From the NCBI RefSeq assembly GCF_054482595.1, contig NZ_CM137008.1: a DNA stretch of 64,000 nucleotides; one strand, written 5' to 3'. Positions 1 to 42,062 of this stretch are shown one piece after another. Below the pieces are notes generated by a model. The model had not been told where the DNA came from. It made no database searches and saw only the letters and a program-made list of their open reading frames with translations. The position numbers and the translations under genes are program-made. Within the stretch, counting starts at the first letter, position 1. The number at the start of each line of letters is the position of its first letter.

Positions 1-1099
1 TGGTGGCACGAAATACACGGCGCGAATTGCTAAAGTTGGCTTCTTCGCCGGTATCCTGTTACCTGCATTTATTTTGATTGCATTAGCGGCTATTTATCTG
101 CACTCCGGTGCCCCCGTTGCTATCGAAATGGATTCGAAGACCTTCTTCCCTGACTTCTCTAAAGTGGGCACCCTGGTTGTATTTGTTGCCTTCATTTTGA
201 GTTATATGGGCGTAGAAGCTTCCGCAACCCACGTCAATGAAATGAGTAACCCAGGGCGCGACTATCCACTGGCTATGTTACTGCTGATGGTGGCGGCAAT
301 CTGCTTAAGCTCTGTTGGCGGTTTGTCTATTGCGATGGTCATTCCGGGTAATGAAATCAACCTCTCCGCAGGGGTAATGCAAACCTTTACCGTTCTGATG
401 TCCCATGTGGCACCGGAAATTGAGTGGACGGTTCGCGTGATCTCCGCACTGCTGTTGCTGGGTGTTCTGGCGGAAATCGCCTCCTGGATTGTTGGTCCTT
501 CTCGCGGGATGTATGTCACAGCGCAGAAAAACCTGCTGCCAGCGGCATTCGCTAAAATGAACAAAAATGGCGTACCGGTAACGCTGGTCATTTCACAGCT
601 GGTGATTACTTCTATCGCGTTGATCATCCTCACCAATACCGGTGGCGGTAACAACATGTCCTTCCTGATCGCACTGGCGCTGACGGTGGTGATTTATCTG
701 TGTGCTTATTTCATGCTGTTTATTGGCTACATTGTGTTGGTTCTTAAACATCCTGACTTAAAACGCACATTTAATATCCCTGGTGGTAAAGGTGTGAAAC
801 TGGTCGTGGCTATTGTCGGTCTGCTGACTTCAATTATGGCGTTTATTGTTTCCTTCCTGCCGCCGGATAATATCCAGGGTGACTCTACCGATATGTATGT
901 TGAATTACTGGTCGTTAGTTTCCTGGTGGTACTTGCCCTGCCCTTTATTCTCTATGCTGTTCATGATCGTAAAGGCAAAGCGAATACCGGCGTCACTCTG
1001 GAGCCAATCAACAGTCAGAACGCACCAAAAGGTCACTTCTTCCTGCACCCGCGTGCACGTTCACCACACTATATTGTGATGAATGACAAGAAACACTAA
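1..1099 (+). CDS. gadC: Glutamate/GABA antiporter GadC, C-terminal ~365 codons; gene starts upstream of the window
   Basis: Frame 2 is open from position 2 to the stop at 1097-1099; multi-TM amino-acid permease sequence; synteny with yddW/dosCP as in K-12. Confidence 0.85.
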
Positions 1100-1123
1100 C
1101 CATGTCTGAATGGTTATAAGACA

Positions 1124-1153
1124 AGGGAGCGATAATTCATCGCTCCCTTTTTC
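1124..1153 (+). terminator. Rho-independent terminator after gadC
   Basis: Inverted repeat agggagcgat / atcgctccct with 5-nt loop followed by a T-run. Confidence 0.7.
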
Positions 1154-1229
1154 GTGCTTGCTGTCGTATTGACTTAACCGGGATAAGTACGAGAATGAGC
1201 GCACATCTGTTTACCGGAAACCAGCACAT

Positions 1230-2549
1230 ATGGATATCTGCTCCCGAAACAAGAAATTAACGATTAGAAGACCAGCGATACTGGTTGCACTGGCACTTTT
1301 ACTGTGTAGTTGTAAAAGCACGCCTCCAGAGTCCATGGTGACACCACCAGCGGGTTCAAAGCCACCAGCCACGACGCAACAATCGTCACAACCGATGCGT
1401 GGCATCTGGCTGGCCACGGTGTCTCGCCTCGACTGGCCACCGGTTTCCTCGGTTAACATTAGTAACCCCACCAGCCGGGCCCGTGTACAACAACAGGCGA
1501 TGATCGACAAATTGGATCATTTGCAACGTCTCGGTATAAACACGGTCTTTTTCCAGGTCAAGCCGGACGGTACCGCCCTGTGGCCTTCAAAAATTTTGCC
1601 ATGGTCCGATCTTATGACCGGTAAGATTGGTGAAAATCCGGGTTACGATCCGCTGCAATTTATGCTCGACGAAGCCCACAAGCGTGGGATGAAAGTACAC
1701 GCCTGGTTTAACCCCTATCGCGTATCGGTTAATACGAAGCCCGGTACTATCAGGGAACTGAATAGCACTCTGTCTCAACAACCGGCGAGCGTCTATGTGC
1801 AACACCGTGACTGGATCAGAACGTCTGGCGATCGCTTTGTCCTCGACCCGGGCATCCCTGAGGTTCAGGACTGGATCACATCAATAGTCGCAGAAGTGGT
1901 TTCCCGCTATCCGGTAGATGGCGTGCAGTTTGACGACTATTTCTATACTGAGTCACCGGGTTCACGGCTAAATGATAACGAAACGTACCGCAAATACGGA
2001 GGCGCATTTGCGTCAAAAGCAGACTGGCGGCGCAACAATACTCAGCAGTTAATTGCAAAAGTATCGCACACCATTAAAAGCATTAAGCCGGGAGTCGAAT
2101 TTGGTGTTAGCCCGGCAGGCGTGTGGCGTAACCGATCACACGATCCGCTCGGTTCCGATACCCGAGGCGCGGCAGCCTATGACGAATCCTACGCTGACAC
2201 CCGTCGATGGGTGGAACAAGGATTGCTGGATTACATTGCTCCCCAAATTTACTGGCCGTTCTCACGGAGTGCCGCGCGTTATGACGTGTTGGCAAAATGG
2301 TGGGCGGATGTCGTTAAACCGACCAGGACCCGCCTGTATATCGGTATCGCCTTCTATAAAGTGGGTGAACCTTCAAAGATAGAGCCAGACTGGATGATTA
2401 ACGGCGGCGTACCGGAACTGAAAAAGCAGCTCGATCTTAACGATGCGGTACCAGAAATTAGCGGCACCATCTTGTTCCGTGAGGACTATCTGAATAAACC
2501 GCAGACTCAACAAGCGGTCAGCTATCTGCAAAGTCGTTGGGGCAGTTAA
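1230..2549 (+). CDS. yddW: Lipoprotein YddW (glycosyl-hydrolase-like family)
   Basis: 439-aa ORF with signal peptide and lipobox-like LLCSC; position between gadC and dosC as in K-12. Confidence 0.8.
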   Translation: MDICSRNKKLTIRRPAILVALALLLCSCKSTPPESMVTPPAGSKPPATTQQSSQPMRGIWLATVSRLDWPPVSSVNISNPTSRARVQQQAMIDKLDHLQRLGINTVFFQVKPDGTALWPSKILPWSDLMTGKIGENPGYDPLQFMLDEAHKRGMKVHAWFNPYRVSVNTKPGTIRELNSTLSQQPASVYVQHRDWIRTSGDRFVLDPGIPEVQDWITSIVAEVVSRYPVDGVQFDDYFYTESPGSRLNDNETYRKYGGAFASKADWRRNNTQQLIAKVSHTIKSIKPGVEFGVSPAGVWRNRSHDPLGSDTRGAAAYDESYADTRRWVEQGLLDYIAPQIYWPFSRSAARYDVLAKWWADVVKPTRTRLYIGIAFYKVGEPSKIEPDWMINGGVPELKKQLDLNDAVPEISGTILFREDYLNKPQTQQAVSYLQSRWGS

Positions 2550-2920
2550 ACTCCCATTCTTACTTTGTAACAAGCCGGTACATTACCCACCGGCTTGTTA
2601 CCCTCTTGAACTATCCCACTACTAATCATGCTTACTAAAGTCAAATTAACCATGCAATTAACCACACTTAGTTAAACAGCCATAAATCCCCTAATACAAA
2701 TGTATGAATATGAAAAAACATACGATATTCGCTGTCACCGAAAAATAATTACGATGGGCTATACTCTTCTGAAGAACAGTAGCGTAGATTGAAACTGTCC
2801 TAAGTCGCTTATTTCTTTTCAGTATATCTTCATATTTCAGGAGAATATGGTGCAGTTAGTCGATCTCGCACGTTGCGTTTTGATTCCGTCTGATTTCCCA
2901 GCCTTATAAGGGTGTGAATT

Positions 2921-4303
2921 ATGGAGATGTATTTTAAAAGAATGAAAGATGAGTGGACCGGACTTGTCGAACAGGCAGATCCGCCCATTCGAGCTAAAGC
3001 CGCGGAAATTGCCGTTGCGCATGCTCATTATCTGAGTATTGAGTTTTATCGAATTGTCCGCATCGACCCGCATGCCGAAGAATTCTTGAGTAATGAACAA
3101 GTTGAGCGGCAGTTGAAAAGTGCGATGGAACGCTGGATTATTAACGTGCTTTCTGCCCAGGTTGACGATGTCGAAAGGCTAATACAAATCCAGCATACCG
3201 TCGCGGAAGTGCATGCCCGCATAGGAATTCCGGTAGAAATTGTCGAGATGGGGTTTCGGGTGCTGAAAAAGATCCTCTATCCGGTAATCTTCTCTTCGGA
3301 TTATTCTGCCGCAGAAAAACTTCAGGTCTACCATTTCTCGATTAACAGTATTGATATCGCTATGGAAGTGATGACCCGCGCGTTTACCTTTAGTGACAGT
3401 AGTGCCTCAAAAGAAGATGAAAACTATCGTATCTTCTCGTTACTGGAAAACGCCGAAGAAGAAAAAGAACGGCAAATAGCCTCAATACTTTCATGGGAAA
3501 TAGATATCATCTATAAAATCCTGCTGGATTCTGATTTAGGCAGTAGTTTGCCTTTAAGCCAGGCTGATTTTGGCCTGTGGTTTAACCATAAAGGTCGACA
3601 TTATTTCAGCGGCATTGCTGAAGTGGGCCATATCTCTCGTCTGATTCAGGATTTCGACGGTATTTTCAATCAAACCATGCGTAACACCAGGAATTTGAAT
3701 AACAGAAGTCTGCGGGTGAAATTTTTATTACAGATAAGAAATACCGTATCGCAAATTATTACCTTGCTGCGTGAATTGTTTGAAGAAGTATCGCGCCACG
3801 AAGTCGGTATGGATGTACTGACGAAATTACTTAACCGCCGTTTCCTGCCGACTATCTTCAAACGCGAAATTGCCCATGCCAACCGGACCGGTACACCGCT
3901 GTCAGTGCTGATTATTGACGTTGATAAATTCAAAGAGATCAACGATACGTGGGGCCATAACACTGGCGATGAAATTCTGCGTAAAGTCTCTCAGGCCTTT
4001 TATGACAACGTCCGCAGTAGTGATTATGTTTTCCGCTACGGGGGCGATGAATTTATCATTGTTTTGACTGAAGCTTCTGAAAACGAAACGTTACGTACCG
4101 CAGAACGTATTCGCAGTCGGGTGGAGAAAACCAAACTGAAAGCCGCAAACGGCGAAGATATTGCCCTCTCACTTTCCATCGGTGCCGCCATGTTTAATGG
4201 TCATCCTGACTATGAGCGCCTCATTCAAATAGCCGATGAAGCTCTGTATATCGCCAAAAGACGAGGTAGAAACCGTGTTGAACTCTGGAAAGCCAGTCTT
4301 TAG
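2921..4303 (+). CDS. dosC: Diguanylate cyclase DosC (globin-coupled sensor with GGDEF domain)
   Basis: 460-aa ORF; C-terminal GGDEF motif (RYGGDEF) seen in translation; immediately upstream of dosP. Confidence 0.9.
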   Translation: MEMYFKRMKDEWTGLVEQADPPIRAKAAEIAVAHAHYLSIEFYRIVRIDPHAEEFLSNEQVERQLKSAMERWIINVLSAQVDDVERLIQIQHTVAEVHARIGIPVEIVEMGFRVLKKILYPVIFSSDYSAAEKLQVYHFSINSIDIAMEVMTRAFTFSDSSASKEDENYRIFSLLENAEEEKERQIASILSWEIDIIYKILLDSDLGSSLPLSQADFGLWFNHKGRHYFSGIAEVGHISRLIQDFDGIFNQTMRNTRNLNNRSLRVKFLLQIRNTVSQIITLLRELFEEVSRHEVGMDVLTKLLNRRFLPTIFKREIAHANRTGTPLSVLIIDVDKFKEINDTWGHNTGDEILRKVSQAFYDNVRSSDYVFRYGGDEFIIVLTEASENETLRTAERIRSRVEKTKLKAANGEDIALSLSIGAAMFNGHPDYERLIQIADEALYIAKRRGRNRVELWKASL

Positions 4304-4327
4304 ATGCGCCAGGATGCAGAGGTAATC

Positions 4328-6727
4328 ATGAAGCTAACCGATGCGGATAATGCCGCCGATGGCATTTTTTTCCCCGCCCTTGAGCAAAATATGATGGGTG
4401 CGGTGTTAATTAACGAAAATGATGAAGTGATGTTTTTCAACCCCGCCGCAGAGAAGCTCTGGGGGTACAAACGTGAAGAAGTCATTGGCAATAACATTGA
4501 TATGCTGATTCCGCGGGATTTGCGTCCTGCGCATCCTGAATACATTCGTCATAACCGTGAAGGCGGTAAAGCGCGCGTCGAGGGGATGAGTCGGGAGCTG
4601 CAGCTGGAGAAAAAAGACGGCAGTAAAATCTGGACCCGTTTTGCGCTATCAAAAGTGAGCGCCGAGGGGAAAGTTTATTACCTGGCGCTGGTACGGGATG
4701 CCAGCGTAGAAATGGCGCAAAAAGAACAGACCAGGCAATTGATTATTGCCGTTGACCATCTCGACCGACCGGTGATTGTCCTCGATCCGGAACGCCATAT
4801 TGTGCAGTGCAATCGCGCATTTACCGAAATGTTTGGTTACTGCATTAGCGAAGCCAGCGGTATGCAGCCCGATACACTCCTGAACATTCCTGAATTCCCT
4901 GCCGATAACCGCATTCGTTTACAACAGTTGCTATGGAAAACCGCCCGCGATCAGGACGAATTTCTGCTGTTGACGCGCACCGGTGAAAAAATCTGGATTA
5001 AAGCTTCTATCAGCCCGGTTTATGACGTGCTCGCGCATCTGCAGAACCTGGTAATGACCTTCTCGGATATCACCGAAGAACGGCAAATCCGCCAGCTTGA
5101 AGGCAATATTCTCGCCGCCATGTGCAGCAGCCCGCCATTTCATGAAATGGGGGAAATCATTTGTCGTAATATCGAATCTGTTCTCAACGAATCGCATGTT
5201 TCGCTGTTCGCACTGCGCAACGGGATGCCGATACACTGGGCGTCATCTTCCCACGGTGCAGAAGTTCAAAATGCGCAAAGCTGGTCAGCGACCATTCGTC
5301 AGCGTGATGGCGCGCCTGCGGGGATCCTGCAAATTAAAACCTCGTCAGGAGCAGAAACCAGCGCCTTTATCGAACGCGTGGCAGATATCAGCCAGCATAT
5401 GGCCGCGCTGGCGCTGGAACAGGAAAAAAGCCGTCAGCATATTGAACAACTCATCCAATTTGATCCGATGACCGGTCTGCCAAATCGCAATAACCTGCAC
5501 AATTACCTCGATGACCTGGTCGACAAAGCCGTCTCTCCGGTGGTGTATCTCATCGGTGTTGACCATATTCAGGATGTGATTGATAGCCTTGGCTATGCGT
5601 GGGCCGATCAGGCATTGCTGGAAGTGGTCAATCGCTTTCGTGAAAAACTCAAACCGGATCAGTATCTCTGTCGTATCGAAGGTACGCAGTTTGTCCTCGT
5701 GAGCCTGGAAAACGACGTCAGTAACATTACCCAAATCGCCGATGAGCTACGGAATGTGGTCAGCAAGCCGATAATGATTGACGATAAACCCTTCCCGCTT
5801 ACCTTGAGTATTGGCATCAGCTACGACGTGGGTAAAAACCGCGATTACCTGCTCTCCACTGCTCACAATGCAATGGATTATATTCGCAAGAATGGCGGTA
5901 ACGGCTGGCAGTTCTTCAGCCCGGCGATGAACGAAATGGTAAAAGAGCGTTTGGTTTTAGGCGCAGCGCTGAAAGAGGCGATTAGCAATAACCAACTGAA
6001 ACTGGTTTACCAGCCGCAAATCTTCGCAGAAACGGGTGAACTGTACGGCATCGAAGCCCTTGCTCGCTGGCACGATCCCCAGCATGGTCATGTGCCCCCT
6101 TCACGGTTTATTCCTCTCGCAGAAGAGATTGGTGAAATCGAAAATATTGGGCGCTGGGTCATCGCGGAAGCTTGCCGTCAGTTAGCAGAATGGCGTAGCC
6201 AGAATATTCATATCCCGGCGTTATCCGTGAACTTGTCGGCGCTGCACTTTCGCAGTAATCAACTGCCTAATCAGGTGTCTGATGCAATGCAAGCCTGGGG
6301 TATTGACGGCCACCAGCTGACGGTGGAAATCACGGAAAGCATGATGATGGAACACGATACCGAAATCTTTAAGCGCATTCAGATCCTGCGTGATATGGGC
6401 GTGGGTTTATCGGTAGATGATTTTGGCACGGGCTTTTCCGGATTATCCCGCTTAGTCAGTCTTCCGGTAACGGAAATCAAAATTGACAAAAGTTTTGTCG
6501 ATCGTTGTCTGACGGAAAAACGCATCCTTGCCTTACTTGAAGCCATTACCAGCATTGGGCAAAGCCTCAATTTAACCGTCGTGGCGGAAGGCGTCGAAAC
6601 CAAAGAGCAATTTGAGATGCTACGTAAGATCCACTGTCGAGTTATTCAGGGATATTTCTTTTCCCGCCCCCTACCCGCCGAAGAAATTCCAGGCTGGATG
6701 AGCAGCGTGTTACCGCTGAAAATCTGA
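4328..6727 (+). CDS. dosP: c-di-GMP phosphodiesterase DosP (PAS heme sensor, GGDEF-like and EAL domains)
   Basis: ORF 4304-6727; start placed at MKLTDADN to give 799 aa; EAL-domain motifs in C-terminal half; an in-frame start at 4304 is also possible. Confidence 0.9.
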   Translation: MKLTDADNAADGIFFPALEQNMMGAVLINENDEVMFFNPAAEKLWGYKREEVIGNNIDMLIPRDLRPAHPEYIRHNREGGKARVEGMSRELQLEKKDGSKIWTRFALSKVSAEGKVYYLALVRDASVEMAQKEQTRQLIIAVDHLDRPVIVLDPERHIVQCNRAFTEMFGYCISEASGMQPDTLLNIPEFPADNRIRLQQLLWKTARDQDEFLLLTRTGEKIWIKASISPVYDVLAHLQNLVMTFSDITEERQIRQLEGNILAAMCSSPPFHEMGEIICRNIESVLNESHVSLFALRNGMPIHWASSSHGAEVQNAQSWSATIRQRDGAPAGILQIKTSSGAETSAFIERVADISQHMAALALEQEKSRQHIEQLIQFDPMTGLPNRNNLHNYLDDLVDKAVSPVVYLIGVDHIQDVIDSLGYAWADQALLEVVNRFREKLKPDQYLCRIEGTQFVLVSLENDVSNITQIADELRNVVSKPIMIDDKPFPLTLSIGISYDVGKNRDYLLSTAHNAMDYIRKNGGNGWQFFSPAMNEMVKERLVLGAALKEAISNNQLKLVYQPQIFAETGELYGIEALARWHDPQHGHVPPSRFIPLAEEIGEIENIGRWVIAEACRQLAEWRSQNIHIPALSVNLSALHFRSNQLPNQVSDAMQAWGIDGHQLTVEITESMMMEHDTEIFKRIQILRDMGVGLSVDDFGTGFSGLSRLVSLPVTEIKIDKSFVDRCLTEKRILALLEAITSIGQSLNLTVVAEGVETKEQFEMLRKIHCRVIQGYFFSRPLPAEEIPGWMSSVLPLKI

Positions 6728-36620: not shown

Positions 36621-36848
36621 TTACATGCTGTAACCGGGTTTCTTTATCAAAGCCTCCATTTGGGGCGCGATTTCGGCATCCCAGATAGCTTGCCATGATT
36701 CTGGTTGAATCTGCTGTAGAGAAATGCTTATCGAGCTATCTTTACTGTTCAGATGGCGAATAATAACGTCGGTAATATCTGCAGCAAGTGCTGCTTTTTG
36801 TTGTTCGTCCAGTTCACGCGGAAAACATTTAATGTCGATGTGCGGCAT
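36621..36848 (-). CDS. pptA: Tautomerase PptA (4-oxalocrotonate tautomerase family)
   Basis: 75-aa product [12 protein letters not shown]… with the N-terminal Pro characteristic of tautomerases; within ORF 36621-36962. Confidence 0.85.
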
Positions 36849-37289
36849 GATTACGCTCCTTTTGAAAGATGTCAGTAAAATTAACACACATTGTGAATGT
36901 CGTATGTCCGGTGATGCGTTTTTACGACAATAATGCCTGCTTGAAATTGTAGATATTTGCACTACACCCTTTTAAATAAAGCACCAACAAATCGTCAACT
37001 TGCAGAACATATTCTTCTGCCTACATACCATTAAGAAAACATCAAGTTCCCGACTTGCCAATTTATTAACGCCCATTATAGACGCTGAAACAAGCTACGG
37101 ACAAAGGAGATGCCAAAATTACCGGCAATGCAGAAAAACTCAACGAACCATGGCTCTTTACCACAGCAGCCGGGGTTGTTTGGGACCGACTTCCGACAGC
37201 AGATCCCGGTGGGCCTGCCACCATCTCTTCACAAGTTTATGCTTATTACATGCAAAACGTCCCGTTTTGCATCTTTGTGCCTACGGCAC

Positions 37290-37400
37290 ACCGTGATCTT
37301 TCCCTGGTCCCTGTCCCGGATTGTAGTACCGGTGCCAGTTGTAGTGCAGTTCGGATTCGTCGTCATACTGCTAGCCCGGATGGCGGAGCAGTTGCTCTAG
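37290..37400 (-). pseudogene. Degenerate orphan Rhs core-end remnant
   Basis: Minus-strand translation QYDDESELHYNWHRYYNPGQG… parallels [22 protein letters not shown] at the end of the intact Rhs core, then hits a stop; DNA similarity to 38400-38480. Confidence 0.5.
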
Positions 37401-37442
37401 TCACTCAGAATATTGTAATAGTGATAGAGTGCAGTGCCGGTT

Positions 37443-37856
37443 TCAATATCCTAACGCTGGTCTTTTGCCTGTATTAACTGATTTAGCTGGTTTGCTACAT
37501 ATTAATGCCTTCAGATTTTCCCTTTCCTTGTCTGTGATACTGTCACAAACCCTACTAGCCCATTCTACTTCACTCTTCTCCAGGCATTCTATTTTCTTAT
37601 TGCTCATTGTTCTAATGTTTGGTGTTGCATCTCCATTTAATAACATCCATGTTTCATTTTTCTTCATAAAACATCTTCCATTATGTTCAAAGATATTAGG
37701 TGTGAATATATTATCAGAATCCCATGTTACGACTTGCTCGAGGGCTATATTATCTTGATAGTCCATGCCAGCATTATAATAATCACAAGATATAATTATC
37801 ATGGAAATAATTATCATGGAAATAATTATCACTAATATCTTCCCAAGCATTTCCAT
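37443..37856 (-). CDS. Putative Rhs immunity protein; predicted inner-membrane lipoprotein (137 aa)
   Basis: Start ATG directly abuts the rhs stop (…GTAAAGTAAATGGAAATG); signal peptide with lipobox IISC and Asp at +2; AT-rich like the Rhs C-terminal domain. Confidence 0.7.
   Translation of the reverse strand: MEMLGKILVIIISMIIISMIIISCDYYNAGMDYQDNIALEQVVTWDSDNIFTPNIFEHNGRCFMKKNETWMLLNGDATPNIRTMSNKKIECLEKSEVEWASRVCDSITDKERENLKALICSKPAKSVNTGKRPALGY
37792..37832. repeat. 15-bp tandem repeat (2.7 copies of ataattatcatggaa) inside the putative immunity gene signal peptide
   Basis: Seen directly; encodes the repeated SMIII segment of the hydrophobic core. Confidence 0.9.
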
Positions 37857-40800
37857 TTACTTTACCTCTTGAAATTCAAATGGGAATCCAGTGAAAGGAC
37901 CTTTAGGCATAATATATCTTTGATATCCATAAAGCTCACCGAGCACTTGTAGGCTTATAGGCGCATTTGTATTCATAGAGGGGTTGTTAAACCCGCACGC
38001 CTCAAAAATCATGTTCGTTCGGCTAAAACAATTATTTAAAACAGGAAGAGGCCCGAGGTTAATAGTTTTTAGTTTTTTATTAAGGTCTATTGCCTTATTC
38101 ATCATACATTGTTCTTCTTCATCTGTTGTATCTATTATCCAAATCCAGGTATCTCTGCGGGATTGTATCTTTTTAAAATAATCAGAGACAGAGGCTCCCA
38201 TCTCATCCCCAGTTCCCGAACTCATTAATCCATATCGATTTGCCGCCGCAGCATGCCCAAAAGGATTATCAGGAACGGGGCCGTTACCTATTATCATAGT
38301 ACTAAGCCCTAATGGATCAACGTGTTGCACTGGATTCAGCGGATATTGGTACAGATTCCATCCCCCCTTCAGCCCTATCGGGTCCTGAGTGATATACCGC
38401 CCCTGCAACGGATCGTAGTACCGGTTCCGGTTGTAGTACAGCCCCGACTCCTTATCATACTGCTGCCCCGGCAGCCGGTACGGCTGGTGCAGGTGATGCG
38501 GGTTCTCCTCATTAAGCTGGTTGCCCCATTCATCATACTCCGCGCTCCACGCCGTATTGCCGTCTTCACTGATAAGCGCCAGCGGCAGGCCCCGGTGGTC
38601 GCAGTGGTAAAGATGAACTTTTCTCGCCGGTGTGTATTCCGGCTCCATCTGTCTGGCCAGTTGCTCCACCGTCAGCCCGCACTGCGCAAGCCACGCCCGG
38701 CTTTCACTGCTCACGCGGTCTGCCCGGATTTCTTCCTCCAGTCTGTCCAGCAGCCGCACCAGTTCAGCCGGAAATACCACGCCGTGCCCGTCCTCGCTCC
38801 CTTCCTGCTGCATCTTCTCCGCCAGGCTGCGGCGCTGCGCTTTCTCCCGCTCGCCGTTCTCTGTCTCGCCCCGGATGAGCGGCGTGAAGCTTCCCGGCTC
38901 GTATACCGTCTGGATACGTGTGGTGTCAGTCTGCACCGTCGTCAGCCTGTCGCCGTCCCACCCGTACCATGTCTCCTCCGGTTTACGCGACAGCGACATC
39001 CATCCCGTCAGGTCACGCCCGCGACGCCACACCCGTTTCGCCATTCGCCGTCCCAGCGGGTCGTAGAGGTAGCAGCTCTCGACCAGTGGCTCGCCATGCT
39101 GTATCCGCGTGTAGAACACCAGGCGGTGCTGGCTGTCGTAGTGATAGTGGTGGGTGCGCTCGTCGTGCATCCGGATAACCCCTTCCGGGATACGGTCCGT
39201 CTTCTCCGCCAGCCTGCCGTATTCATCGTAGCGGTAGACATAGTGCGCATCTTCCGCGATGCGGTTATCCGGCCACGCCGTGAAGGTGCTGTCCGGGTGC
39301 AGTTCCGGGTCCGGCAGCCGGTTTCCTGCCGGGTCCGTCGCATACGGGATATCGATATCCAGGTTCGCTGCCGTGGTGTGGACGCCCGTCAGCCTTCCCG
39401 TGCCGCTGTAACGGTACTCCCGGCTCTCCTGCGGGCCGCTGATGCGGATTAGCTGTCCGTTGTCGTTCCAGTCGTAGTCATGGTCAAGCTGCGGAAGGTT
39501 CAGGTGCCTGCTCCGGAGCTGGCCGCTGGTATTCCAGGCGGTGGCAAGTTCATATGCCTCCCCGCCGAAGCTGCGGGCCGTCTCACGGTGCAGCCGGTCC
39601 CGCGTGTACTCGACCAGCGGCGTTCCGCCCAGCTTCATCCCCGCAAGATAACCGCTGCCATACGTCAGCCACTCCACCCGCGGCAGGCTGTCCGGCGTGA
39701 CGCGGTTTGCCAGACCCTGTTCGTTGTATGCGTGCTCTGTCTCATGCTGCCACAGCAGTTCCCCCGTCTCCGGGTTATGCACCGTCTGGCGTTCGCCGGC
39801 CAGGCGACCCTTATCATCATAACCGTAATGCACCGCCACCTGATGGCCTTCGCTCAGGTGGCTGATGTCTGTCAGCCAGCCGTGGCCGTCATACTGCCAC
39901 TGCTCTGCCGGTTCACCGTTCACCGTGCGGTGAGTGATACGGTCCGATTCGTCGTAGTGCCAGAGGGTGACAAGTCCCTCATCCTCACTCTGTGTGAGTT
40001 TTCCGGTCAGGTCATAATGATAACGCTGCGTCCGCCCGTCAAAGCCGCCCTGCTGTACCAGGCGGTCCAGCGCATCGTAGCTGAAGTCGCTGTGACTGCC
40101 GTTCTCGTTGGTCAGGCTGATGACACGTCCGGCAGCATCGTACTCCATACTGCGCGTCAGCCCGCCCTGCGTGGTGCTGACCGCCTTTCCCCACGCATCG
40201 TACTGTGTCTCGCTCCGGTTGCCGTCCGGGGTGATAACGGCAGTCAGGTCGCCTGCGGCGTTGTATTCATACCGCGTTTCACGGCCCTGTGCGTCTTTCA
40301 CCGAGGTTAACCGGCCACGGTTGTCATAGCGGCGGTAAAGGCTGATGCCTTCCTCGCGGTGGACCGCCGTCATCTGGCCGAAGCGGTCGTATTCATAGCG
40401 GGTCTGGTAGCCCGAGCAGTCGGTGAACGCCAGCAACTGACCGTAGCGGCTCCACGTCATCTGCCGGGTGCTGCCCGTCGCATCTGTTGTCGTGGCCGGT
40501 AATTCACTGTGCGCATCATCATAGCGGTAGCGTACTGTCTCCCCGCTGCGCGATGTCTCCGTTACCAGCCTGTCCAGTTCATCATATGCCCGGCGGCTCT
40601 CCAGCCCGTCCGGGGACACCACCGCCGTCAGCTGGTTCCCGTCGTTATAGTAAAATTTCGTCTCCCGCCCGTCCGGTGTGGTGATGTCCGTGATATCGCC
40701 GGACACCACATTCAGACCGTACTCTGTCCGCCGTCCCGCCGCGTCCGTCTGCGCCGTGAGCCTTCCTGCCGCGTCATACCCGCTGTGCGTGACGCTGCCA

Positions 40801-42062
40801 TCCGCCAGTTCTTTTTTCACCACCCGTTTCAGCCCGCCTTCACCTTCTGTATGCAGCACCTCACGCCGGTTCAGGCTGTCGGTGACGGTGATGCGGTCCT
40901 GCTCATACTGGTAGCGGTAACTCAGGCCTGCCGGGTTAAGCTGCTCCACCACCCGCCCGGTATCGTCGTAGCGGTAGCGCATCTCCGGCCTTCCCGCATA
41001 ACGGTGCCCCACCATCCGGCCCGGGTGCTGCGCGTCATACGTGAAAGCGCGCACCTGTGTCCCGCTGCGGTCATATACCGCCAGCAGTTCACCGGCTTCC
41101 GTATACGTGTACCGCGCCAGTGGCGCTCCGGGCAGGCTCTCCGGGTATGCCGGGTCGTGCATCAGCCACACCGCCAAAAGGCGGATACCCCTGTCGGGGC
41201 CGTATTCGGTACCGGGCAGTGTGTCGGGGAACGCTGAGGCTGAGAGAGGGCGGGAACGGTCAGAAGAAGATAGCGAAGAGGTGCGGGCCTCTTCCGCACG
41301 CTGCGCCTGCGTGGTCAGCACCAGACGGAACTCCCGCCCGGCACCGTCCGTCACGCCGGTGATTTCCCCGGCCAGGTCACCGGCGGCCTCACGCCGGTAC
41401 GTCAGCGTCCGCCCGAAGCGGTCCGCCATCCCGGTAAGCACCCGGTACGGCGGCAGCGGCGCTGGCAGTACGTCCTCAGCACCCGGCACCCGCTCAGACC
41501 ACCCCAGTATCCACCACGGCCCCTGTGCGCTGTTGGTCGCCAGGTAAAGATGCGGGCTTAACCGGATATCCGGCGGCAGCGACGCCCACAGCCGTGCCAG
41601 CGTATGGCCGTCCGGCTGCGTTGCCTTACCGCCACGCACCAGCCACAGGGACTCGCTGCGGCTGTACACCGCCTCACCCGGCAGCAGCGGCTCAAAGTGA
41701 ATGCTCCGTCCGCCGTTGTCGTTGAGTACCAGTGCATCATCGCGTAGCTGTAAGCGGATATCAGAAGGCGCTTTCCAGCCGGGGCCAAAAATCCCCACCG
41801 GTGCAGGCGTCTTCGTCCGGTAGCTGCTGTAGGTGCGGGAGAGAATGAACGGCAGCGGGCCGGGCAGCGCAAGGTCCGTCTCGCCGGGCAGCACCTTCGC
41901 CCCCAGTAGCGGGTTTACCGGGTTAGAATAGGTGATACCGCCCGGACACACCGAGCACGCCACACCGGTCGGCGCGCCTATCAGTACCCCCGCTGACCCC
42001 TGGACTATCGGACCGCCGTACTGGGTCATATCTCCCTGGCGTGCCGCTGGTTTTCCGCTCAT
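37857..42062 (-). CDS. rhs: PAAR-domain Rhs protein (1401 aa): N-terminal PAAR-like region, YD/RHS repeat core, DPLGL boundary, 148-aa C-terminal domain of unknown function (putative toxin)
   Basis: N-terminus [11 protein letters not shown]…; numerous YD repeats; core ends …[32 protein letters not shown] at 38304-38318; downstream CT (37860-38303) is AT-rich. Confidence 0.9.

Follow-up and report, generated by a model that had tools for sequence, protein, structure and literature searches.

Organization of the rhs-pptA interval

The 64-kb stretch of DNA that was analysed (hereafter the window) is part of an E. coli chromosome, and the 480 bp that we queried by megablast (36963-37442) are 100% identical to strain XH990. 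The genes around this segment are arranged on the minus strand in the series ansP-yncG-yncH-vgrG, rhs, an immunity-type ORF, an unannotated gap of 594 bp and pptA, and beyond pptA follow yddH on the plus strand and then nhoA on the minus strand. This vgrG-rhs/pptA locus occupies the position of the rhsE remnant in K-12, with pptA as the conserved flank of the variable rhs region. More specifically, vgrG (44274-42130, minus strand) lies upstream of the resident full-length rhs gene (37857-42062, minus strand; 1401 aa in the ORF list), which is annotated as 'RHS element core protein' in the RefSeq record of XH990 and has its core end at 38471-38401 on the minus strand. It is followed by rhsI (37443-37856, minus strand; 137 aa), the cognate immunity gene of the resident Rhs-CT according to the ORF list and the annotation of relatives, where a hypothetical protein is found directly after rhs in XH990, FDAARGOS_433 and EC1515. 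The tautomerase gene pptA (36621-36848, minus strand) was placed on basis of the annotation of XH990 and its relatives.

The C-terminal domain (CT) of the resident Rhs protein after DPLGL comprises 146 aa (37857-38294, minus strand), and neither this domain nor its immunity protein matched a Pfam family. The rhsI gene carries a 15-bp tandem duplication at 37791-37829 (minus strand), made up of two copies of ATAATTATTTCCATG and a partial third, which gives rise to IIISMIIISMIIIS within the hydrophobic segment predicted at the N-terminus. In FDAARGOS_433 and EC1515 the orthologue (WP_000425544.1) is 15 nt (5 codons) shorter, with 399 nt versus 414 nt in the window.

The RefSeq annotation of the identical strain XH990 holds no feature in the gap between rhsI and pptA. 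A megablast comparison to 5426 complete E. coli genomes revealed that 36963-37442 is a mosaic of three pieces, to which we refer as a (37442-37307), b (37306-37147) and c (from ~37146 to pptA). Piece a represents the leader and 5' stub of an orphan rhs-CT (37307-37442, minus strand) and corresponds at 98.5% identity to the start of an orphan pseudogene in FDAARGOS_433 (L001 6001-6136). Piece b starts with the left terminal inverted repeat of an H-rpt element, CAGGGAAAGATCA (37306-37294), and the dinucleotide CG (37293-37292), a stretch (37292-37306, minus strand) that was recognized by the match of the 13-mer to H-rpt copies. It continues with a 5' remnant of the group II intron E.c.I9 of ~141-145 nt (37147-37291, minus strand), which starts with GTGTG and was identified via Rfam RF01999 and the collinearity with EC1515. 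Piece c is the native intergenic DNA upstream of pptA (36849-37146, minus strand), 97.8% identical to the IS-free strain ZYB39 (L003 6001 onwards). The 594-bp gap is thus accounted for in full by relics nested in one another, namely the stub of an orphan Rhs-CT, a solo end of H-rpt and what is left of E.c.I9.

The original prediction had been made from the sequence of the window and had regarded 37290-37400 as one Rhs fragment. Its greater part, 37400-37308, is Rhs-derived indeed (37442-37307 when the leader is included), but 37306-37290 consists of the H-rpt repeat and the first bases of the intron. The remainder before pptA was said to contain no intact toxin or immunity ORF, and this still stands: the six small ORFs that were scanned in 36963-37477 gave no Pfam match and RefSeq annotates none. 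Nevertheless, that DNA is not anonymous, as it is made up of the H-rpt left end, the 145-nt E.c.I9 remnant and the native sequence upstream of pptA.

The Rhs core-end stub and its intact counterparts

The stub is located where orphan modules are located, downstream of rhs (42062-37857) and rhsI (37856-37443), it starts at most 45 nt from the rhsI stop on the same strand, and it opens, like such modules, with homology to the 3' end of the Rhs core. The minus strand at 37400-37308 reads in frame as LEQLLRHPG-stop-QYDDESELHYNWHRYYNPGQG, in agreement with the original prediction, and the in-frame TAG codons lie at 37403-37401 and 37373-37371. The frame leaves the Rhs sequence after NPGQG at 37308. 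The PxxxxDPxGL motif and the variable toxin domain are absent from the stub, and so is a cognate immunity ORF; nothing in the window corresponds to the one that the intact orphan carries at L001 6645-6988.

The relation to the Rhs core was recovered by various methods. A local alignment of 36963-37442 to the resident core end (38250-38700, both on the minus strand), a comparison of the kind proposed with the original prediction, gave a score of 62, whereas 300 shuffles gave 19.1 +/- 2.3 with a maximum of 30. The claimed likeness to the DNA at 38400-38480 was recovered by blastn, which aligned 37379-37309 to 38471-38401 over 71 nt with 77.5% identity (E 5.4e-11), and this resident core end was the sole non-self blastn match of the stub within the 64-kb window. 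In a tblastn comparison of the main Rhs core end to the intergenic region, 31 aa were aligned with 61% identity (E 1.6e-9). An hmmscan of the 39-aa translation of the stub, with the stop taken as Q, assigned it to positions 1199-1229 of the 1261 of NCBIfam NF041261 (RHS_core; E 2.9e-8), and TIGR03696 (Rhs_assc_core) scored 31.1 bits on the same translation, slightly below the cutoff of 32.5. The segment is short (71-93 nt), and one might therefore consider a chance or compositional match in otherwise ordinary intergenic DNA. However, with an alignment score and E-values of this order, and with hundreds of genomes in which orphan Rhs pseudogenes are annotated that run collinear with the stub, the probability of such a coincidence is close to nil.

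It had also been claimed that the fragment is a decayed copy of the resident core end, in other words a local duplicate that subsequently underwent neutral mutational decay. The 77.5% identity to 38471-38401 and the two in-frame stops are in line with that idea, but a Salmonella/Citrobacter-type core end is closer to the stub (24 of 31 residues the same) than is the resident core (19 of 31). More generally, the stub is 75-79% identical to every E. coli main core examined, and the relatives of the orphan protein in the databases include orphans of Salmonella and Citrobacter, which carry the core end that was used in this comparison. Moreover, the stub varies between strains at just 2 of 136 positions, and its 3' end forms a clean junction with the IS terminus. 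The CT that follows the stub in intact orphans is 98.5% identical to that of a functional gene (see below), which implies that the divergence of the core end is not a matter of uniform decay. We consider local duplication and decay improbable and this element of the original prediction mistaken. Judged by the residues it shares, the stub would be the core end of another, Salmonella/Citrobacter-like Rhs lineage with few extra changes, the stop included, and it was truncated at the IS terminus and not eroded.

The state from which such a stub could have been derived is found in other strains. In FDAARGOS_433 the same 136 bp (37442-37307) are found at this locus as the opening of an orphan pseudogene, annotated as 'RHS repeat-associated core domain', and the frame of this orphan runs on through NPVQWIDLLGL into a toxin domain of 125 aa that belongs to the Pfam family Tox-WTIP (PF15654; E 2.6e-13), after which follow a frameshifted immunity ORF and then H-rpt elements. 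The full orphan module, composed of the core end, Tox-WTIP and the immunity gene, is present in 398 of the 5426 complete E. coli genomes at a coverage of at least 80%. In strain UID2309220033, a Tox-WTIP CT with an intact immunity gene forms the end of a full-length Rhs at the same locus, and the CT of the orphan is 98.5% identical to that of this functional gene. As far as GRYI, the core end of this full-length Rhs-WTIP is the canonical one of E. coli, and from there on the identity to the orphan is ~98% (alignment A1).

The switch to orphan-like sequence in UID2309220033 (L010 5880-6080 versus L001 5998-6190) lies within the conserved stretch at the core end and has the pattern expected of an orphan that was re-activated by recombination with the main gene. 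The strain may represent such a re-activation recombinant, or alternatively the result of an independent acquisition. Koskiniemi et al. are said to have described the re-activation of orphans in Salmonella in 2014, and 'C-terminal displacement' at Rhs was reportedly described by Jackson et al. in 2009.

A further stage is represented by strain 88-3493, where the main CT/immunity module of the window itself sits as an orphan (97% identity over 1063 nt, from PGQQHDEES onwards; L008 2669-3716), downstream of a different main CT and directly behind an H-rpt right end. In this strain a second H-rpt cuts piece a after just 30 nt. Serial displacement is evident from 88-3493, and the two strains show the locus to be an evolving orphan array. 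Together with the Tox-WTIP CT and immunity gene on the full-length Rhs of UID2309220033, this bears out the suggestion in the original prediction that the fragment is an orphan core end left as the footprint of a CT displacement.

The H-rpt end and the group II intron remnant

The 13-mer CAGGGAAAGATCA bounds the 1291-bp H-rpt element of K-12 that carries ydcC (L004 6673 and, in inverted orientation, 7963) and was found at the ends of every H-rpt copy examined; uninterrupted copies read CAGGGAAAGATCACGTAACGCTG. A complete H-rpt of 1291 bp, with CAGGGAAAGATCA and CAGGGCAAGATTA around a transposase gene of ~1.14 kb, was not found in the window. The left repeat (37306-37294) is all that the window holds of the element besides the adjoining CG, as a solo end, and the transposase gene and right repeat are present in EC1515. 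The left repeat and the CG (37306-37292) together constitute the 5' exon of the E.c.I9 homing site.

At the a/b junction, where the orphan stub meets the IS, ...AATCCGGGACAGGGAC is joined to CAGGGAAAGATCA precisely at the IS terminus, and 43 genomes have this junction in common. A junction at this very point would be the signature of an end made by the transposase and not of a random deletion. No target-site duplication was found flanking H-rpt, and a simple insertion is therefore indistinguishable here from an adjacent deletion or from recombination between H-rpt copies. As to the other end of the element, the H-rpt right end in K-12 and O157 abuts the DNA upstream of pptA 210 bp nearer to pptA than it does in EC1515 and 88-3493 (L004 7964; window 36937/36938 versus 37146), from which it follows that K-12 has an additional deletion of 210 bp beside the right end of the IS. 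In the IS-free strain ZYB39 the homology to the window begins exactly at the boundary between IS and flank of EC1515.

The H-rpt termini (CAGGGAAAGATCA and CAGGGCAAGATTA) resemble the Rhs core-end codons for PGQ(Q/G), CCAGGGCAGCA and ACAGGGAC, and H-rpt ends often lie directly beside CAGGG-like sequences (~16 junctions, several of them non-independent). Examples are the stub of the window, the orphan of 88-3493 starting with PGQQHD, intron position ~161 and the tandem left repeats of O157. It is conceivable, albeit doubtful, that the H-rpt transposase targets or mis-recognises sequences like its own ends; with ~16 partly non-independent junctions the recurrence provides only a hint. If true, such end-targeting would offer a mechanistic explanation for the decades-old association of Rhs and H-rpt, and H-rpt would take an active part in trimming and shuffling the arrays of orphan toxins, at defined points.

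Several arrangements of these ends were encountered in other strains. O157 (NE122 and Sakai; L005/L011, L011 6801-6826) has tandem left repeats, CAGGGAAAGATCA CAGGGAAAGATCA, before the E.c.I9 fragment. NCTC86 (L002 5934-6190) has a truncated H-rpt left end, after this a repeat with 161 nt of intron, and then a second repeat with the full H-rpt, where the breakpoint in the intron reads GCGCAGGGG on the one side and CAGGGAAAG on the other. In 88-3493 (L008 2640-2700 and 3690-3730) the H-rpt right end abuts the orphan exactly at CCAGGGCAGCAA (PGQQ).

The remnant of E.c.I9 was matched by Rfam model RF01999 (group-II-D1D4-2) at 37222-37117 with 49.2 bits, the gathering score being 36 (E 1e-8). The alignment is good over only the first ~75 positions of the model and poor beyond 37147, which leaves a partial domain I; the full E.c.I9 copy of EC1515 obtained 93.9 bits with the same model. 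Neither a match to domain V/VI (RF00029) nor a reverse-transcriptase ORF was found in this region of the window, and EC1515 has both. To judge from these missing parts, the remnant should be unable to splice or move. In sequence it equals the 193-bp fragment 'E.c.I9-1/tr1' of O157 Sakai, with a constant offset of +135 in the current version of that record. Fragments of E.c.I9 occur in 2545 genomes and copies that cover at least 80% of the intron in 84. The 160-bp unit 37306-37147, of which a copy with identical ends is found at the yafV rhs locus, was also considered as the left end of a distinct ISAs1 subfamily or as a discrete mobile unit; this was ruled out by Rfam and EC1515, which resolve it into an H-rpt repeat and the 5' end of a group II intron.

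The undeleted arrangement is found in EC1515. There, rhs is followed by the immunity gene and the stub known from the window, by the left repeat of H-rpt and by a group II intron of 1.87 kb with an ltrA pseudogene and a domain V/VI match to RF00029; subsequently come the remaining part of H-rpt, with the ydcC transposase and the right repeat, and finally pptA. The window aligns to this sequence in two blocks, 37458-37147 to L009 1700-2011 (99.4%) and 37154-36835 to L009 5001-5320 (97.8%), and equals EC1515 minus ~2.99 kb (L009 ~2012-5000). At the resulting junction (b/c) the sequences are joined within a TGGT microhomology (37150-37147), with 7 of 8 nt in common: the window reads ...GAGCCATGGTTCGTTG, the intron of EC1515 reads GAGCCAAGGTAGTG at the breakpoint (GAGCCATGGTAGTG in O157), and the H-rpt right end of EC1515 with its flank reads TTGCCCTGGTTCGTTG. 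Excision via a pseudo-left-repeat in the intron, GGTAAAGAGCCA, which is loosely repeat-like, was rejected in favour of the microhomology, since GGTAAAGAGCCA is kept at the junction.

The b/c junction, between intron remnant and pptA flank, occurs in 18 genomes, and it is these 18 in which the 480 bp are covered in full. All 17 of those that could be checked among the a/b matches listed (25 of 43) also carry a/b, from which we infer that the 18 genomes are nested within the 43. Moreover, Combat11I9, EC974, LH50-c and L26 have the a/b junction together with the full intron, and the deletion is thus nested within, and later than, the a/b event.

Proposed history and function of the stub, and its relation to known systems

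We propose to read the feature as a 5' stub without function that remains of an orphan rhs-CT/rhsI module and was shaped by displacement, H-rpt, intron insertion and deletion, and we assign this reading a probability of about 0.88. Homologies and junctions were observed directly, and so were the intermediate states that other strains represent. The order and direction of the events are inferred from the comparison of a handful of strains and would be as follows. First, a Tox-WTIP toxin/immunity cassette would have been displaced from the end of rhs by a newer CT/immunity cassette, the present module at 38340-37443, which entered by recombination at the conserved end of the core; its predecessor would have been left downstream with ~95 nt of core-end coding sequence and would have acquired in-frame stops. 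Second, an H-rpt would have come to abut the orphan at its left inverted repeat, directly after the NPGQG codons, and what followed of the orphan toxin would have been removed along with its immunity gene and the debris of older H-rpt copies, either by insertion and then recombination between H-rpt copies or by an IS-mediated adjacent deletion. Third, before or after this second step, E.c.I9 would have inserted 15 nt inside the H-rpt left end. Fourth, the ~2.99-kb deletion would have taken the intron sequence starting at nt ~146 together with all that remained of the H-rpt as far as its right terminus, probably via the TGGT microhomology.

With regard to the first step, the core end of the stub is unlike the canonical core end of the Rhs-WTIP of UID2309220033. 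It may therefore be that the orphan at no time served as main CT in this lineage, and it may instead have been acquired horizontally, already as a cassette with a Salmonella-like core end.

The stub is expected to have no function today, considering that it has no start codon context, two in-frame stops and no DPxGL motif, toxin or immunity gene. Nevertheless, a remaining role has to be considered, either as a site at which recombination could start in CT switching or re-activation, or as a regulatory or RNA element for rhsI or pptA. The core-end homology of intact orphans can recombine with the main gene, and the canonical core fused to the orphan CT in UID2309220033 is consistent with such an event. 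However, the window holds nothing useful downstream that could be re-activated, and the conserved core-end stretch in which the intact orphan has exact runs of 16-20 nt in common with the main gene is deleted from it. The longest exact run that stub and resident rhs gene still have in common is 11 nt, which is too short for the homologous recombination that re-activates intact orphans. A regulatory role finds as little to build on: Rfam detected nothing above chance on the stub, the one match being RAGATH-28 with an E-value of 7.6, which was discarded as chance, and a promoter scan placed all promoter-like sites in the native DNA upstream of pptA (36849-37146) and none in the stub. We regard a stub that still works as very unlikely. 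In the Rfam survey the Yersinia sRNA Ysr206 was matched at 36837-36908 on the plus strand, overlapping the start of pptA, with 17 bits (gathering score 124) and an E-value of 0.1, which is almost certainly chance.

An inert stub is of little importance beyond annotation. The loss that it marks concerns toxin and immunity alike: the Tox-WTIP of the orphan and the gene that protects against it are gone from the strain, which could be sensitive to neighbours that deploy Tox-WTIP. In addition, the window and the intermediates in other strains illustrate clearly how displacement builds up Rhs toxin arrays and how mobile elements then prune them.

The processes involved, i.e. Rhs displacement, the association with H-rpt and the homing of E.c.I9 into H-rpt, are already known, and the stub of the window is ordinary debris of an Rhs locus. 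Orphan rhs-CT/rhsI modules were described with an in-frame stop in the retained core piece, and CTs known as orphans were encountered elsewhere as the ends of full-length genes (Poole et al. 2011, PLoS Genet 7:e1002217; PMC3150448). The stub of the window resembles these modules in that it lies downstream of a full-length vgrG-linked rhs and its immunity gene, starts with a short core-end coding piece that carries an in-frame stop, and has its former CT fused to a full-length rhs in another strain. It differs from them in that the core-end stub alone was kept, whereas the DPxGL motif, the toxin and the immunity gene are gone; it is the relic of a module, not a module.

The mobile elements have well-described relatives as well. 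The H-rpt end has a 13-nt terminal repeat, CAGGGAAAGATCA, identical to that of the H-rpt/ISEc1-type elements of the ISAs1 family, such as ydcC beside pptA in K-12, and it is found at the same locus and in the same orientation as the ydcC copies of K-12, O157 and EC1515, but the window retains only the first 15 nt, with the transposase gene and the right end deleted. For the intron, it was reported that E.c.I2 and E.c.I9 home into Rhs-associated IS, with a 193-bp 'E.c.I9-1/tr1' fragment listed 'in a Rhs region' of O157 Sakai and others (Tables S2/S3) and a 159-bp E.c.I9 fragment in BL21/REL606 (Leclercq & Cordaux 2012, PLoS One 7:e52268; PMC3522654). The remnant in the window has the same 5' sequence of this bacterial class D intron and the same homing site in the Rhs-associated IS. 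In contrast to the intact intron it is devoid of domains V/VI and of the reverse-transcriptase ORF, and in contrast to the listed fragments it represents a third truncation, of ~145 nt, with another 3' breakpoint and joined straight to the DNA upstream of pptA.
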